56,009 bases of DNA from the IMG/VR virus record IMGVR_UViG_2512047041_000008, one strand, 5' to 3'. This document shows positions 5,769 through 54,371 of the stretch, piece after piece; positions within the stretch are counted from its first letter, which is position 1; each line of letters opens with the position of its first letter. The position numbers and the translations under genes were made by a program. The DNA comes from a virus (Duplodnaviria; Heunggongvirae; Uroviricota; Caudoviricetes). The notes under the pieces were generated by a model. The model worked only from the letters and a program-made list of their open reading frames with translations, had not been told where the DNA came from and made no database searches.

Positions 5769-6050
5769 TCACATCCAGCCACGAAGTTGATGCTCAACAA
5801 CAATCGCGTATTTATCGAATATTGACGATTTTTTTGCATCATTAATGATGCGCACGTTTACAAAATATCCGTCCTCCTTAACACATACCGGTTCGCCATC
5901 TTCAGTCAGTTCTCCGGTTTCTTTGTACACGTTACCTATCACGTCAATAAGAATATCATCCTGCATCGACTCGTCATCATAATAGCCAATACTCTCCATA
6001 AAGGCCGAAAAGTCGGCCCTGTCTGCAAATTTGAGCGTTAAATCTTTCAT
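5769..6050 (-). CDS. Hypothetical acidic protein between stf and the S74-domain gene
   Basis: 93-aa ORF, start overlaps stf stop (coupled); no recognised family. Confidence 0.4.
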   Translation of the reverse strand: MKDLTLKFADRADFSAFMESIGYYDDESMQDDILIDVIGNVYKETGELTEDGEPVCVKEDGYFVNVRIINDAKKSSIFDKYAIVVEHQLRGWM

Positions 6051-8452
6051 TTAATACTCTCCCCCATTTGCGCATCAGTTAATTCTTTATGCCAGAGACG
6101 AAGATTTCTCAAATGGCCGAATAGATGACGAGTTCCCGATGTGGCTTGACCTCCAATTCGAATAAAGGTCCGTGTTTTTACGCCCGTCCACTCCGTTTTC
6201 ATGGTTTTAGTAGCCTCACCGTTAGAAACTACTCGTTTAGTACCATCAGAATAAATATTAAAACCACCAATGAATTTTCGAACATCAGTTCGACCAGCAA
6301 ACACACTAGAAACGTAAGTACTTGTCGACGCTTTATAAGTTTGCATATAAAGCTGACCGTAATATTTCTCAGTTGTGTTAAAAGCGTATGTAATTGACTC
6401 AATAGGTGGCACACCAGAAAAATCAAAAATACGCGGTGCTACATTAGGAGGAATATCGCCCCAATTTCTATTAACCTCGACCAGGCACGTAAGCGGTCTA
6501 TTATAGATATTATTTTCAGTTGGGATCGTCACCATATCACTGGAGCGGGTTGCGGGTACAGTTGTCGTAATAACAAAAGATGAAGCACATCCGCCGTTTT
6601 CAAATTGTGGTGTTGCAAGGTAAATATAATCTCCCGCTTCAGTTACACCACCTTTTTTCGGCGCATACTGAATCATTGCGCCAATTAAGGTTTCACCTTC
6701 AACAGCTTCTATAGTTGCCTCATAGAAAATCCACCCTGTAACCGGATCTTTAGTTGCAGTAGCTGCTATTCTATTGGCTGCTCCGCCAGTTTTTTCTATT
6801 ATCAGAGTTCCGAAAGTTAAATAAGCATCTCCTAAAAATGTATAAACCGACCCATCGTATTTTTCAAAACGCAAACGACAACGAAGACCATCAGGAGCTT
6901 TAACCCTGCATGAAACAGTGCAATACTTATTATCGCCACTAACATCAATCCCCCGGGATGCACTGCATGTATGCAGACTAAGTGCAGATGATTGTCCTGT
7001 CATATTATCTTTTGTTCGCATTTTGGCATATGAAAAACCAAATTCATCAACACCATTATTAGTTTTATCGATATTGCTGGTACTCGTCCATTCAGCGGGG
7101 ATATTGGATTTAACAAAATAGTTAGTGCGCTGTCCTTCAATCAATAAACCTTCTTTTTCAAATCGTGGCTCATCAATTTTAGCAACACTAAATACGCCTG
7201 ATTTATTGATATATGTGGCAGTTGATGCGCGTTTAAACTTTACAACCTTATCGCCAGGCATCGTTATTTCATCATCACCAATAACAATCTTTTTATATGA
7301 CGGCGAAAAGCCCGTAATCATATCCAGTGAATCGTTAAACGGTATCCACACATCGGGAAGCGGCTGCAAAACTTGTTTATACGGCTCCGCAGCCTGGCTT
7401 GCATACTCTCTGGCTGCGTCTTCACTTGCTTTTGCAGCCGTCTGGCTTGCTGCCGATGCTTTCGCTGAGTTAGCCGCCGCAGTCTCGCTCGCCTTTGCGT
7501 TGGTTTCACTGGTTTTTGCAGCTTTTTGACTGTTGGCTGATGCAGAGGCAGAAGAAGCCGCCGCACTTGCAGAACCAGCTGCGGCACTCTCGCTTTGGGC
7601 TGCTGCATCCTGACTGTTTTTCGCCGCAGTTTCACTGGCTTTGGCATTCGTTTCGCTGGTCTTCGCTGCCGTCTGGCTGGACTTTGCGTTAGTTTCACTC
7701 GTCTTCGCAGCTTTCTGGCTGTTAGCCGCAGCAGTTGCTGATCCAGTTGCTGAAGTCGCAGAACCGGCTGCCGCGCTCTCGCTTTGGGCTGCTGCAACCT
7801 GGCTGTTTTTTGCCGCAGTTTCACTGGCTTTGGCATTCGTTTCGCTGGTCTTCGCTGCCGTCTGGCTGGACTTTGCGTTGGTTTCGCTCGTCTTTGCGGC
7901 TGTCTCGCTATTTTTCGCGTTGGTTTCTGATTTTTTGGCTGCTGTCGCGGAGTTTTCTGATGCAGTCTGTGAGGTCGCTGCCGCCTGTGCACTATTAGCT
8001 GCATTCGTTTCTGAGGTTTTCGCCGCGTTCTTCGATGATGCCGCTGCAGTTTCGGATTTCTTTGCCGCCGCTGCGCTCTGAGAGGCGGCTTCGGCGTTGC
8101 GTGCCGCTTCTTCCACCATTTCCTCAAAACGACGCAATGCCTCCGGCATGACATCATCTTCCGTCATGGCACCGAGAAAATCATTCAGCGTACCTGGTCT
8201 GGAACCTTCATAGACGGTAATGGTTCCGGCATGTGAAGGCGGAAAACCTTCAACAAGCAGGATAACGCTGTACTGGCCATACTCAACATCCATGCTGTAA
8301 CGCCCGGCTTCATCCGGATTTTCAGAGGCCACCGTGTTCACCAGTACCGTGGTGCTGTTACGCTTTGCCTTCAGTTGAATAGTGCAGTTCTGTATTGGTT
8401 TTCCCGCACCATCTTTCAGCACACCTGAGATTTTTACTGCTGCCATATCCAC
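6047..8452 (-). CDS. stf: Side tail fibre protein (lambda Stf-like N-terminus, Ala/Ser/Thr-rich repeat shaft, lectin-like C-terminal domain)
   Basis: 801 aa; N-terminus MAAVKISGVLKDGAGKP matches recalled lambda Stf; internal tandem repeats. Confidence 0.75.
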   Translation of the reverse strand: MDMAAVKISGVLKDGAGKPIQNCTIQLKAKRNSTTVLVNTVASENPDEAGRYSMDVEYGQYSVILLVEGFPPSHAGTITVYEGSRPGTLNDFLGAMTEDDVMPEALRRFEEMVEEAARNAEAASQSAAAAKKSETAAASSKNAAKTSETNAANSAQAAATSQTASENSATAAKKSETNAKNSETAAKTSETNAKSSQTAAKTSETNAKASETAAKNSQVAAAQSESAAAGSATSATGSATAAANSQKAAKTSETNAKSSQTAAKTSETNAKASETAAKNSQDAAAQSESAAAGSASAAASSASASANSQKAAKTSETNAKASETAAANSAKASAASQTAAKASEDAAREYASQAAEPYKQVLQPLPDVWIPFNDSLDMITGFSPSYKKIVIGDDEITMPGDKVVKFKRASTATYINKSGVFSVAKIDEPRFEKEGLLIEGQRTNYFVKSNIPAEWTSTSNIDKTNNGVDEFGFSYAKMRTKDNMTGQSSALSLHTCSASRGIDVSGDNKYCTVSCRVKAPDGLRCRLRFEKYDGSVYTFLGDAYLTFGTLIIEKTGGAANRIAATATKDPVTGWIFYEATIEAVEGETLIGAMIQYAPKKGGVTEAGDYIYLATPQFENGGCASSFVITTTVPATRSSDMVTIPTENNIYNRPLTCLVEVNRNWGDIPPNVAPRIFDFSGVPPIESITYAFNTTEKYYGQLYMQTYKASTSTYVSSVFAGRTDVRKFIGGFNIYSDGTKRVVSNGEATKTMKTEWTGVKTRTFIRIGGQATSGTRHLFGHLRNLRLWHKELTDAQMGESIK
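7569..7946. repeat. Two tandem 189-bp (63-codon) repeat units inside stf, within a longer degenerate repeat tract
   Basis: Sequence from 7569 recurs at 7758 with near identity over about 120 bp; encodes repeated SETNAK..TAAK motifs. Confidence 0.8.
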
Positions 8453-50276: not shown

Positions 50277-50633
50277 TTAAAAAATCAGAACGCCGTGCGG
50301 CCTCAACACCCGAAAGGCTTCTTTAAATCTCTGTCGCGAATCATCACGCCAGGCATCTTTATTCAGCCGTCCATATTTCTTTCCCATCCAGGCGTTATCA
50401 CCAACACTCTCAAGATGCGGAGGGTCTAATACAACCATCGAAAAAGATGCGTCTGCAAATGATAATGCACGAAAATCTGCGATAATGTCAGGGCTGATAA
50501 TCAAGCGTCTCCCATTGCGTAATGTGTATCCTTCTTTTCTGATATCGCTGAATATCGCCCGTTCGTCAGACTTATCGAACCAGAACATGCGGCTGCCACA
50601 GCACATATCAAGAATGGTTGCCGGTGCACTCAC
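50277..50633 (-). CDS. DNA methyltransferase-like protein (short, possibly truncated)
   Basis: SAM-binding-like DMCCGS and catalytic DPPH motifs; only 118 aa. Confidence 0.5.
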   Translation of the reverse strand: MSAPATILDMCCGSRMFWFDKSDERAIFSDIRKEGYTLRNGRRLIISPDIIADFRALSFADASFSMVVLDPPHLESVGDNAWMGKKYGRLNKDAWRDDSRQRFKEAFRVLRPHGVLIF

Positions 50634-51052
50634 TGCGCCACGTCCTGAAAATTACCCTGATAGAAAGCCAGTATGCGCTGCATAACTTCGCTCTTCCGGC
50701 ACTCGCGACAGATTATGTTTAGGCGACTGTCGTAGCGACGTATTTCTCCGTCAGGTGATGACCAGATAAGGTCCGGATCAACCACAGCAGGTTTCTTCAC
50801 CTTTGCCCTCGAGAGTTTTTTGCGGGCGTTTTGCCAGTCCTTACGCGCCTGTTCAGAGGGGAATAACCCGTAGCCGGAGTTGTATACATCGCCACTGGCT
50901 ACCAGCTCTCTGGCAAGAACGCTCATCAGATATCTAGTCGCACCTGTTTTAGCTTCCAGTTGCCGTAACGTCTCACGGCCGCTCTGGCGCACGAGTTCCA
51001 CCACCTGCCATTTAATTTTTTCCCGCTCTTCTTGTGTAAAAACTTTTGCCAC
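50630..51052 (-). CDS. Hypothetical phage protein downstream of the replication gene
   Basis: 140-aa ORF overlapping the methyltransferase start. Confidence 0.45.
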   Translation of the reverse strand: MAKVFTQEEREKIKWQVVELVRQSGRETLRQLEAKTGATRYLMSVLARELVASGDVYNSGYGLFPSEQARKDWQNARKKLSRAKVKKPAVVDPDLIWSSPDGEIRRYDSRLNIICRECRKSEVMQRILAFYQGNFQDVAQ

Positions 51053-51092
51053 AAGTCCCCCTTAAAATTACCTCATGACCTGAAATCAACAC

Positions 51093-52112
51093 TTATCCTC
51101 TGAAACCAGGCGGAATTTCTGTATCCGGTTCAGAAATATGATTAACACAACGCTGTACAGGTGAACGTCCCAGGCGGATGACCAGTTCGTCCCATTTTTC
51201 GCGGAGCTTTGACGGGCTCATGATGTTTTTTACCCAGAATGGATCTCGCTGAACCCGACCAAACATTTCGCAAATTTGTCTGTGGCTTCTGCCATCCAGC
51301 ATCCGCATTGTGCGCACGTCATTGGCCCAGGCAGTCCAGTTAGGCTCTTTTGGTCGCATGATCTCGCCATCATCACTGGCTGCCTGTTCGTAGAGACCCA
51401 CGATCCGCCCCCAGATCCACTGCGCACACGCCAAATCCTCCCTGCTACCCCACTGGCGTTTTTTCGCACTAAACACAACCGCGTCGGAGTTCCGGGTTAA
51501 AAAATCCTGTTCAGTCGTCTGCGGGTCCGGTTGCGAAGCTTCCGGACGAAAAGTGTTTTTATTCTCTGTAGTAATCTCTGTTGTATTCTCTGTAAGATCA
51601 TCAGGCCATTTTGACCCGATGACATTGGGTCGTTTTGAACCAATGGAGCGTTTCATTTTGACCTCTTCCATCGTGTCATTTTGACCTGATGGAGCGGCGC
51701 ATTTTGAACCGATGGATTCGCTCAATTTGCCACCATCTAAAAGCTCGCTCCCATAGTTGATCGTGTAGAAATTGGTCATATCGCGCTTTGATTTATTGAG
51801 CTTTTCACAACGCAAAAGCCCCAGCGTTTTCAGACTTGCAAACGCGCGCTTTAACGTTGACTCTGACCAGAATGGGAACTGTTCCAGCCATTGTTCCGTT
51901 GTGTTATAAATCCAGCGAACACCATCACATTCCATGCCGGAGTTGGTATCTCTCAACCAGTAGTGCAGTTGTTGCAAAACAATGGCTTCGTTTAAGCCAA
52001 TTTTCATTGCCAGCTGCGTGTTTATAACCAGTGGGCGTTCAGCAAAAAGAAGGCTCATAATTCCATCCAGCTTTTTGTTGGTATTGCTGTCGATACGCAA
52101 GTTTGAAAGCAA
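51093..52112 (-). CDS. Replication initiation protein (lambda O-like role) with internal iterons
   Basis: 339 aa; iteron array inside the gene, as for lambda ori within O; repeated IGSK peptide motifs encoded by the iterons. Confidence 0.6.
   Translation of the reverse strand: MLSNLRIDSNTNKKLDGIMSLLFAERPLVINTQLAMKIGLNEAIVLQQLHYWLRDTNSGMECDGVRWIYNTTEQWLEQFPFWSESTLKRAFASLKTLGLLRCEKLNKSKRDMTNFYTINYGSELLDGGKLSESIGSKCAAPSGQNDTMEEVKMKRSIGSKRPNVIGSKWPDDLTENTTEITTENKNTFRPEASQPDPQTTEQDFLTRNSDAVVFSAKKRQWGSREDLACAQWIWGRIVGLYEQAASDDGEIMRPKEPNWTAWANDVRTMRMLDGRSHRQICEMFGRVQRDPFWVKNIMSPSKLREKWDELVIRLGRSPVQRCVNHISEPDTEIPPGFRG
51605..51740. repeat. Putative replication origin: about 6 direct iterons (core ATTTTGA(A/C)C, period 22-24 bp) within the replication gene
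   Basis: Cores at about 51609, 51633, 51655, 51678, 51702, 51724. Confidence 0.6.
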
Positions 52113-52452
52113 TTGCTTTTTCTATAAGTTCGTCAGTTTCACGATCCACTACGGCAGGATCAGCAAAAAGCAGTCCGGACTCCACCACATCGCCATATTC
52201 TTTGTTTAACCCGGCGATCATGCACGTGATGCTTTTTCCGTCAGTAATTTCACGATACAACCTGAAATCATTAATCCGGATAGCCTCCATAATTGCAGGC
52301 ACTAGCGCCGTGAACTTTTCACGCTTATCCCTGGTGTCGATAGCCTTCCAGCGTTCAAATATCTTCACTCGATTAACGCCAAGCGCTCGCTGATCAATCG
52401 CGCCACCTTCATATGTGACACGCTGAACATCGATGTTCGGGCGCTCTTTCAA
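52039..52452 (-). CDS. Hypothetical phage protein; start lies 18 bp from the IS629-like copy 3 boundary (possibly 5'-truncated)
   Basis: 137-aa ORF overlapping the replication gene start. Confidence 0.35.
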   Translation of the reverse strand: MKERPNIDVQRVTYEGGAIDQRALGVNRVKIFERWKAIDTRDKREKFTALVPAIMEAIRINDFRLYREITDGKSITCMIAGLNKEYGDVVESGLLFADPAVVDRETDELIEKAIAFKLAYRQQYQQKAGWNYEPSFC

Positions 52453-52511
52453 AGCCCAGAATGCTTCAGTGAACCGCCCCGGGTTTCCTGGAGAGTGTTT
52501 TATCTGTGAAC

Positions 52512-53399
52512 TCAGGCTGCCAGATCATTGTTTCCGATGGAAGCATAATAAGCTTTTTCTGCTTCTGCCGGAGGAGTATGGCCCAGCCTTCCCAGTAATC
52601 GTCGATTGTTATACCAGTCCACCCACGTTAGTGTGGCCAGTTCCACTTCTGCACGGTTTTTCCAGCTCTTACGGTGTATTACCTCCGCTTTGTAAAGACC
52701 ATTGATGCTCTCAGCCATCGCGTTGTCATACGAGTCGCCTGTACTTCCTGTTGATGCCAGTAATCCGGCTTCTTTTAGTCGCTCCGTATAGGCCAGTGAC
52801 ACATACTGAGAGCCTTTATCGCTGTGATGGATGGTGCCAGACGGACGACGGGCCCACAACGCCTGCTCCAGCGCATCCAGCACGAATGTCGTTTCCATAG
52901 ACGATGAGACCCGCCACCCCACGATGTATCCAGCAAACACATCAATGATAAACGCCACATAGACGAAGCCCTGCCATGTGCTGACGTAAGTAAAATCAGC
53001 CACCCACAGCTGGTCAGGACGTTCTGCCACGAACTGACGGTTTACGCGGTCACCTGTGGCAACGGTTTTCCGGCTGACGGTAGTGCGGACCTTTTTACCC
53101 CGGAGAACACCGGCAAGTCCCATAACCGCCATGAGGCGCGCCACTGTACATCTGGCCACCCTGATTCCTTCCCGTAACAACTGACGCCAGACTTTACGCA
53201 CACCGTACACCTGATGATTTTCATCGTATACGCGCTGTATCTCTCTCTTCAGCCAGTCATCGCGCTGCGCACGGGTACAGCGTTTATCAGGATGATGCCG
53301 CTGCTGCTGACAGTGGTAATACGTTGACGGGGCAATATGCAGTTCACTGCATACAGGTCCGACCCCGTACTGCTCACGCAGCTTATCCAGCAGTGGCAT
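52512..53399 (-). CDS. IS629-like transposase OrfB (variant)
   Basis: 295 aa, DDE. Confidence 0.8.
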   Translation of the reverse strand: MPLLDKLREQYGVGPVCSELHIAPSTYYHCQQQRHHPDKRCTRAQRDDWLKREIQRVYDENHQVYGVRKVWRQLLREGIRVARCTVARLMAVMGLAGVLRGKKVRTTVSRKTVATGDRVNRQFVAERPDQLWVADFTYVSTWQGFVYVAFIIDVFAGYIVGWRVSSSMETTFVLDALEQALWARRPSGTIHHSDKGSQYVSLAYTERLKEAGLLASTGSTGDSYDNAMAESINGLYKAEVIHRKSWKNRAEVELATLTWVDWYNNRRLLGRLGHTPPAEAEKAYYASIGNNDLAA

Positions 53400-53725
53400 T
53401 ATTTTTTCCAGAGGCGGTCGAACTCCGCCTTCGCAAAATAAGCGGAAGCCTGGCGAAGGATATCGTTACTGCGGCGCAGTTCACGATTTTCACGTTCCAG
53501 CTCTTTCAGACGCTGACGTTCAGCGGTGGTGAGCCCACCATCACCGCCCCCGGTATCCCGCTCATGCTGGCGAACCCAGACACGCAGAGTCTCTGGCGTA
53601 CAGCCAGTCTTTGGAGCAATGGAACAAATTGCCGCCCATTGTGAGTCATATTCGTCCTGACTTTCCAGAACCATACGAACTGCCCGTTGACGGACTTCGG
53701 GGGAAAAACGTGTATTTTTAGTCAT
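53399..53725 (-). CDS. IS629-like transposase OrfA (variant)
   Basis: 108 aa, a few substitutions relative to copies 1 and 2. Confidence 0.8.
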
Positions 53726-53828
53726 CCTGTTTACCTCTTTCTCAGGAAGTTTAGTCTCCAGGATTCCCGGGGCGGTTCAGAACGGTCATCACGAAATCAC
53801 ATCCACCAGCAGGACGTGTGACCATCTA

Positions 53829-54371
53829 ATGATCGACCTTGAAACCATGGGAAAAAATCCTGATGCCCCGATCATCTCAATAGGTGCAATATTTTTCGAT
53901 CCGCAAACCGGAGATATGGGACCGGAATTTAGTAAGACTATCGATCTGGAAACTGCTGGCGGAGTCATTGATCGGGACACCATTAAATGGTGGCTTAAGC
54001 AATCACGCGAAGCGCAATCTGCCATTATGACCGATGAAATCCCGTTAGATGATGCACTGTTACAATTGCGAGAATTTATCGACGAAAACTCCGGTGAATT
54101 TTTTGTTCAGGTTTGGGGAAATGGAGCCAACTTCGACAACACGATTTTGCGCCGTTCATACGAACGGCAGGGGATCCCCTGCCCGTGGCGTTACTACAAC
54201 GATCGCGATGTACGCACAATCGTTGAGCTGGGGAAAGCCATAGACTTCGATGCCAGAACGGCTATTCCATTCGAAGGTGAGCGCCATAATGCACTTGATG
54301 ACGCCCGTTACCAGGCAAAATACGTTTCAGTTATCTGGCAAAAACTGATCCCGAGTCAGGCTGATTCTTAA
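53829..54371 (+). CDS. 3'-5' exonuclease, DEDD (DnaQ-like) superfamily
   Basis: Exo I-like DLETMG and Exo III-like HNALDDARY motifs; co-oriented with int. Confidence 0.7.
   Translation: MIDLETMGKNPDAPIISIGAIFFDPQTGDMGPEFSKTIDLETAGGVIDRDTIKWWLKQSREAQSAIMTDEIPLDDALLQLREFIDENSGEFFVQVWGNGANFDNTILRRSYERQGIPCPWRYYNDRDVRTIVELGKAIDFDARTAIPFEGERHNALDDARYQAKYVSVIWQKLIPSQADS

Follow-up and report, generated by a model that had tools for sequence, protein, structure and literature searches.

A putative replication origin of iterons and 12-mers within the O-like initiator gene of a lambdoid Escherichia coli prophage

We analysed a window of 56,009 nucleotides, the virus record IMGVR_UViG_2512047041_000008 of IMG/VR (Caudoviricetes), which carries a lambdoid prophage of Escherichia coli and, within it, a gene for an O-like replication initiator (51093-52058, minus strand). 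Six iterons arranged head-to-tail and three tandem 12-mers lie in the part of this gene that encodes the linker between the two folded domains of the protein, and together they very probably constitute a theta-type replication origin (ori) of the prophage. Iterons with an unwinding element inside the initiator gene are a textbook arrangement, and the present case is an unannotated instance of this well-known kind. For many temperate phages, lambdoid ones among them, it puts a concrete ori on the map.

Iteron array and 12-mer tract

The array spans 51599-51737 and consists of six 23-bp units; it is described here on the minus strand, in the sense of the gene, and can be read on the plus strand as well. 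In gene sense it opens with a degenerate unit (AATTTGCCA, 51715-51737), followed by units at 51692-51714, 51669-51691, 51646-51668, 51623-51645 and 51599-51621, and those at 51669, 51623 and 51599 are near-palindromes, with 16 of their 23 positions self-complementary. Along the plus strand the starts (51599, 51623, 51646, 51669, 51692 and 51715) follow one another in steps of 24, 23, 23, 23 and 23 bp. The units conform in gene sense to CATCrGGTCAAAATGrCCyGATG (CATCrGGTCA-AAA-TGrCCyGATG when set out as a dyad), with an A-tract centre, TCAAAAYG, present in every one.

The core, GGTCAAAATG in gene sense, was counted as ATTTTGAMC: four exact copies fall within 51608-51709 and six in the whole 56 kb, where 1.47 are expected, a total reached by none of 100 shuffles. 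A fifth unit is a one-base variant, GTTTTGAAC. Self-identity across 51599-51737 amounts to 0.56 at lag 23 and 0.55 at lag 46, and the lag-23 value stands at z = 6.3 against all 139-nt segments of the window, with 0 of 5000 shuffles scoring as high. Tandem Repeats Finder returns a period of 23 with 3.7 copies. No second cluster of the core exists elsewhere in the 56-kb window; DnaA boxes (TTWTNCACA) occur at chance frequency in the window scan, and none was found at the putative ori.

Directly downstream of the iterons in gene sense lie the three 12-mers (51560-51595, minus strand; TACAGAGAATAC, AACAGAGATTAC and TACAGAGAATAA), whose consensus is TACAGAGAnTAC and which form a putative DNA-unwinding element (DUE). 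They sit in a low-GC tract (51557-51598, 29% GC against 48% for the gene) whose sense strand is A-rich. A nearest-neighbour scan ranks the 36-mer that starts at 51556 as the weakest duplex in the entire gene (rank 1 of 930, z = 2.9). When the identical scan is applied to gene O of lambda, the minimum falls in the known AT-rich tract, with z = 3.0. The original prediction had proposed, from the letters of the DNA, about six direct repeats spaced 22-24 bp apart inside a replication open reading frame (ORF) of 339 aa, to be checked by self-alignment and by a search for an adjacent AT-rich stretch. Our results bear out each of these points: self-alignment gives a strong 23-bp periodicity from six units 23-24 bp apart, the host ORF is the 339-aa frame 51093..52112 on the minus strand, and the AT-rich stretch adjoins the array and holds the least stable duplex.

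A GATC site (51596-51599) lies exactly at the junction between the last iteron and the first 12-mer (GATGATCyTACAGAGA). Nine of 11 enterobacterial relatives keep this site, and several of these carry a gene for a Dam-type methylase just past that of the initiator.

The initiator and its resemblance to known systems

The host gene encodes 321 aa from the annotated ATG and is listed in RefSeq as a 'hypothetical protein' (WP_000054512.1); the 339-aa frame is the longest ORF and begins at a TTG. Residues 35-339 of the latter match positions 11-298 of the 298 in PHROG 391, 'replication initiation O-like', with E = 1.3e-91. Three parts can be distinguished: an N-terminal winged-helix-like domain, presumed to bind the iterons (51738-52058, aa 1-107), a helical C-terminal domain homologous to that of lambda O according to BLASTP and an AlphaFold2 (AF2) model (51171-51512, aa 183-296), and a DnaT-like C-terminal tail, VQRCVNHISEPDTEIPPGFRG (51096-51158, the last 21 residues), all on the minus strand. 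The C-terminal half aligns with residues 135-270 of lambda O at 34% identity over 148 residues (BLASTP, E = 2e-26). This alignment begins at the last iteron, exactly where the array meets the AT-rich tract, and the peptide encoded by the 12-mers pairs with the peptide encoded by the AT-rich tract of lambda.

The AF2 model has a mean pLDDT of 55.9. Residues 10-105 of the N-domain reach a pLDDT of 66-83 and adopt the topology H-H-E-E-H-H-E-E, while residues 109-175, at 24-30, form a predicted disordered linker between the two folded domains; this linker is exactly what the iterons and the 12-mers encode. The best Foldseek matches of the N-domain in the PDB are N-domains of RepA_N-type initiators, followed by generic winged helix-turn-helix regulators; these matches are weak (E >= 0.02), the top ones (4pql, 5kbj and 4pt7) having E values of 0.02-0.2 and a TM of about 0.5 on a model of moderate confidence. 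The prediction thus suggests a winged helix, and we claim nothing more for it.

We also considered whether the N-domain belongs to the origin-binding family of lambda O. This candidate was rejected, as hhalign against residues 1-115 of lambda O returned a probability of 0.1%.

To compare the two layouts, we read the lambda sequence (J02459) directly. It contains four dyad iterons of 18-20 bp (ATCCCTCAAAACGAGGGA and variants) spaced by 20, 24 and 23 bp and followed by an AT-rich tract, both in the middle of gene O. Lambda carries four iterons and the Stx phages six, in gene O, with the AT-rich tract as the unwinding site (PMC7466680). The present element shares with lambda and with the Stx phages 933W and P27 the siting of the ori halfway through the initiator gene, where the linker between domains is encoded, the presence of four to six dyad-symmetric iterons with an A-tract centre (CCCTCAAAACGAGGG in lambda, GGTCAAAATGACC here) and a spacing of 20-24 bp. 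With lambda it further shares a promoter-distal, A-rich and easily melted tract that is the stability minimum of the gene, and an initiator whose C-domain is homologous to that of O. The array is positionally equivalent to lambda ori. The original prediction had likened the arrangement to that of lambda ori within gene O, and had called the array a putative ori that would fall if the protein were not a replication initiator; the likeness holds against J02459, the initiator identity is upheld by the PHROG match and the homology to the C-domain of lambda O, and the reading as an ori is thereby supported.

The differences from lambda are as clear. The N-terminal DNA-binding domain is not of the Phage_rep_O family, the units measure 23 bp instead of 18-19 bp, the tract to be melted is made of sequence-specific 12-mer repeats where lambda has a plain stretch of A and T, the initiator gene is not followed by a P gene, and the initiator carries a DnaT-like C-terminal tail.

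Other systems resemble parts of this arrangement. In the Bacillus phage SPP1, oriL lies inside gene 38, the gene of the replisome organizer gp38, and likewise combines direct repeats bound by the initiator with an AT-rich DUE within the initiator's own gene (PMC6316719); SPP1 differs in that it brings along both a loader (gp39) and a helicase (gp40) and has a second origin, oriR. The plasmid initiators of the RepA_N type (RepA of pSK41 and pTZ2162; 4pql, 4pt7 and 5kbj) are the best, albeit weak, structural match to the predicted N-domain, a suggestive likeness that does not amount to an established one, and they serve plasmid replicons, not phages. RepA_N replicons also carry iterons within the rep coding sequence. 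The DUEs of oriC type contain repeated 13-mers or DnaA-trios; the tract described here resembles them as a tandem short repeat of fixed sequence that adjoins the presumed binding array of the initiator where the duplex is weakest, and differs in its sequence (ACAGAGAnTAC) and in its initiator family.

By analogy with O at lambda ori and gp38 at SPP1 oriL, initiation could proceed as follows. Dimers of the winged-helix N-domain would bind the five or six 23-bp dyad iterons, whose A-tract centres (CAAAATG) are about 23 bp apart. The resulting nucleoprotein complex on supercoiled DNA would strain and presumably melt the adjacent triple 12-mer (TACAGAGAnTAC), the weakest duplex of the gene, after which the lambda-O-like C-domain, the DnaT-like tail or both may recruit the replicative helicase of the host.

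With regard to the tail, a sequence search of the PDB with the initiator matched this part only, in the chains 2ru8, 6aep and 9zbt_D (E. coli DnaT). The protein ends in VNHISEPDTEIPPGFRG, which is nearly identical to the extreme C-terminus of E. coli DnaT, and relatives with a different C-domain also terminate in …PAGFRG or …PAGFRS. A 2026 preprimosome paper does not state a role or partner for the extreme C-terminus of DnaT. As a side reading, the DnaT-like tail (…SEPDtEIPPGFRG) on loader-less initiators could be the motif by which DnaT and phages contact a host partner in replication restart or helicase loading.

Recurrence of the cassette and competing roles for the repeats

Over 50600-52472 the sequence agrees fully (100% identity) with Escherichia phage PhiR42_1 and at 97% with HannyBb and mEp460_ev081, so that the ori stands at 97-100% identity in these three deposited phage records. 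It is present in 1955 of 5426 complete E. coli genomes (about 36%), always under 'hypothetical protein'. At E <= 1e-10 the databases contain 4248 members of the initiator family, nearly all unnamed and without Pfam domains, although PHROGs and some phage records label the family O-like. This is an annotation gap of some size: an origin type found in more than a third of the complete E. coli genomes, with thousands of proteins in the databases, is filed in RefSeq as 'hypothetical protein', Pfam holds no model for either initiator domain, and the records examined contain no rep_origin feature.

Beyond E. coli, phages of Klebsiella, Erwinia, Pseudomonas, Geobacillus, Staphylococcus, Bacillus and others have the N-domain at 49-75% identity; taken over the whole span that runs from E. 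coli to Staphylococcus and Geobacillus, the domain is conserved at 49-100%. A scan of IMG/VR with the N-domain alignment gave copies of 97-100% identity only; we used these for haplotypes and a species-level genome collection for diversity. An alignment of 11 elements, drawn from 9 genera, shows both units and 12-mers conserved in register. The Klebsiella phages ST147-VIM1phi7.2 and SopranoGao and the Erwinia phage PEp14 carry a 23-24-bp array right after the N-domain and then ACAGAGA 12-mers; the Pseudomonas phages AF and 8P have the 12-mers, with a lag-23 periodicity in the wider analysis, and the Staphylococcus phage StauST398-3 has a 22-23-bp array with a single 12-mer-like copy. The flanks of the iterons vary with the N-domain subgroup (GGTCAAAATGAC, GGGCAAATTGCCC and GGACAAAATGGCCC), and the CAAAWTG centre is retained. 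Most of 79 species-level loci and six phages show a 21-24-bp array directly after the N-domain and then ACAGAGA 12-mers; the best autocorrelation lag is 21-24 in most of the 79 loci, where ACAGAGA is almost confined to this spot and to the sense strand.

The C-domains of the phages that carry the cassette are mutually unrelated and their neighbouring genes vary (none, a primase-helicase, or a loader with a DnaB-like helicase). The alignments describe a conserved cassette of N-domain, array of about 21-24 bp and ACAGAGA 12-mers, which on sequence evidence is attached to unrelated C-domains in different phages of Proteobacteria and Firmicutes. It amounts to a natural experiment in which one origin-binding cassette has been joined to several helicase-recruitment domains.

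Some assignments in the public assemblies fall outside this picture. Contigs filed as Veillonella parvula, Bacillota and Collinsella metagenome-assembled genomes contain the E. coli prophage sequence at 100% identity, and records titled Nocardioides and Micromonospora contain a Staphylococcus-phage-like contig of 32% GC. These odd-host contigs are likely artefacts of binning or contamination.

The motif ACAGAGAnTAC(A/T) follows the iterons, in one to five copies, in phages or prophages of Enterobacterales, Pseudomonas, Campylobacterales, Desulfuromonas, Geobacillus/Anoxybacillus and Staphylococcus. We surveyed its codons in 116 T-E-x-T units from 84 distinct genes, in hosts with a GC content of 0.32-0.63. 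Threonine is written ACA in 113 of the 116 units (24% elsewhere), and glutamate GAG in 112 (44% elsewhere), although GAA is the codon richer in A and T; ANT stands in third place and ACA or ACT in fourth. Ten of the 12 positions are thus fixed across hosts of 32-63% GC. Such fixed synonymous codons argue that the 12-mer is constrained in its sequence and is not just AT-rich. In concordance with its position here, the 12-mer block is the stability minimum in 6 of 7 genes scanned and adjoins the minimum in the seventh: among five other cassette phages the tract ranks first in four and fifth in Pseudomonas 8P, where the gene-wide minimum begins 8 nt upstream of the 12-mers.

A tentative extension of these data, possible and yet rather doubtful, is that the 12-mer serves as a sequence-specific origin element recognised by the initiator itself. 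Recognition would plausibly take place on the single strand once the duplex has melted, much as with DnaA-trios or with plasmid Rep proteins that bind the single-stranded DUE. It would then have travelled with the winged-helix N-domain across phages of Proteobacteria, Campylobacterota, Desulfuromonas and Firmicutes, and N-domain, iterons and 12-mers would make up a portable origin cassette to which evolution adds one or another C-domain for recruiting the helicase (lambda-O-like, DnaD-like and others). Both the 12-mer shared across phyla and the DnaT-like tail of an initiator that has no loader offer leads on how such phages open DNA and capture the host helicase without a loader of their own.

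A different role could account for part of the same pattern, namely that the 12-mers, and to some extent the array, are kept mainly as recombination microhomology at a module boundary, for swapping N-domain cassettes between C-domains. Phages with a common N-domain, iteron and 12-mer cassette indeed have unrelated C-domains past the 12-mers, and one haplotype in a set of 80 near-identical IMG/VR copies keeps the sequence to the end of the iterons and turns to unrelated sequence exactly within the 12-mer block, a mosaic junction at the boundary of domain and ori. However, such a junction is also expected if the 12-mers are simply the sole DNA shared by otherwise different genes, and a direct role would be selected for more strongly than evolvability. 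A recombination linker also leaves unexplained why ten positions are fixed at the stability minimum, and the 12-mers occupy the place of the unwinding tract of lambda and are the least stable duplex, or stand beside it, in every gene scanned. We therefore regard this role as improbable in the main, and as possible in the form of a side effect.

It is quite improbable, too, that the repeats bind the initiator chiefly for regulatory ends (autoregulation, titration, incompatibility or exclusion of related phages) while the true origin lies elsewhere. There is precedent for such effects, as plasmid iterons and cloned phage oris are known to titrate initiators and cause exclusion, and papers exist on the lambda inhibition phenotype and on ectopic oris (PMC3349717, PMC4488673); SPP1, moreover, has its second origin outside gene 38. 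Against this, the 56-kb prophage window contains no second cluster of the iteron core, the array abuts a minimum of duplex stability that a purely regulatory site would not need, and the layout corresponds in position to lambda ori, which has been proven by experiment.

The repeats also bear on the protein, since they are translated. A period of 23 does not divide by 3, and the core GGTCAAAATG accordingly falls into each of the three reading frames: the frame offsets of the units are 0, 2, 1, 0, 2 and 2, and the identical core is translated as GSK, GQN or VKM. The peptide IGSK occurs three times (SIGSKC, SIGSKR and VIGSKW), only from the three units in a common frame, and the units outside that frame encode GQND, VKMK and GKLS. 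This confinement to co-phased units implies that the DNA repeat is primary and the peptide repeat a by-product. The original prediction had held that the DNA repeats and an IGSK peptide motif are coupled; IGSK is indeed encoded, and the coupling proves incidental.

We then compared codon positions by pairwise identity in a gap-free alignment of nine enterobacterial relatives. In the block of iterons and 12-mers, identity is 0.88, 0.87 and 0.83 at codon positions 1, 2 and 3, while the N-domain block presents the normal coding signature of 0.90, 0.95 and 0.58. Identical residues share the identical codon at a rate of 0.90 in the ori block compared to 0.55 in the N-domain block, and yet the peptide is less conserved in the linker (0.73) than in the N-domain (0.88). 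The segment is under purifying constraint at the level of DNA. Flat identity over the codon positions, together with shared codons for a less conserved peptide, indicates that the iterons and 12-mers are a DNA element overprinted on a tolerant stretch of protein, and conservation of a non-coding type within a coding gene is accounted for by the embedded ori.

That the array is instead an IGSK repeat selected for protein function, with its DNA periodicity a mere consequence, would fit the three IGSK copies in the translated linker, and is effectively refuted by a 23-bp period read in three frames as four different peptides, by synonymous sites better kept than those of the flanking folded domain beside a peptide less kept, and by the predicted disorder of the IGSK-bearing segment in the AF2 model; this coding tandem repeat was rejected by the frame and codon-position analyses alike.

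Weighing the origin and the state of this copy

Several observations weigh against an origin at this place. The replication function of the array itself is something we infer from its anatomy, its constraint and its likeness to lambda. No P-like or DnaC-like gene for a helicase loader follows the initiator gene in the window, in PhiR42_1 or in mEp460_4F5, and without such an adjacent loader the helicase-loading step is left unexplained. The N-domain has no detectable sequence relation to the origin-binding domain of lambda O: it gave no match to PF04492 or TIGR01610 at E <= 10, where lambda O as a control scored 5.7e-36 and 5.4e-39. Searches of Pfam and NCBIfam with the whole initiator matched only the 20-aa DnaT-like tail, and the N-domain by itself matched no Pfam family at E <= 10, a search that covers RepA_N only if that family is in the library. 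Its assignment as a winged helix draws on a model of moderate confidence and on weak Foldseek matches. The cassette is not universal either, as a minority of homologues with short linkers, of the Neobacillus type, have neither array nor 12-mers. Furthermore, no description of the 12-mer or of this origin type was found in the open-access literature searched, which older subscription papers could escape. Finally, the initiator gene is intact in this genome and stands without its natural promoter, owing to a promoter-proximal deletion.

This last point concerns the surroundings of the gene. Upstream of it lies a truncated gene of the cII/YdaT type, a pseudogene without its N-terminus (52039-52470, minus strand), followed by an IS3-family insertion element (52512-53725, minus strand). 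The intact order in PhiR42_1 is cI, cro, cII, O. Compared with that phage the cro/cI/pR region is absent here and the IS3 element truncates the cII/YdaT-like gene, and the comparison of the two sequences attributes the loss of cro, cI and pR to the IS3 insertion or an associated deletion. As the upstream promoter and the immunity region are lost, this copy of the ori is probably silent. The window matches E. coli strain N32 at 100% identity, and its disrupted arrangement was found in 2 of the 5426 complete E. coli genomes.

Downstream of the initiator (50277-51052, minus strand) are genes for a DUF977/LygF protein ('Ren-like') and for an S-adenosylmethionine-dependent methyltransferase, and the same genes follow it in PhiR42_1 and mEp460_4F5. 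The genes exo (exonuclease) and xis (excisionase) are marked as pseudogenes by RefSeq. The prophage end at 52039-54371 is degraded and adjoins rspB.

The only periodicity in the window stronger than that of the array lies at 7548-7927 and is unrelated to it. It consists of in-frame tandem repeats of 21, 42 and 189 bp within an 801-aa ORF (6047..8452, minus strand) in the structural-gene region, presumably encoding a fibre-like protein.

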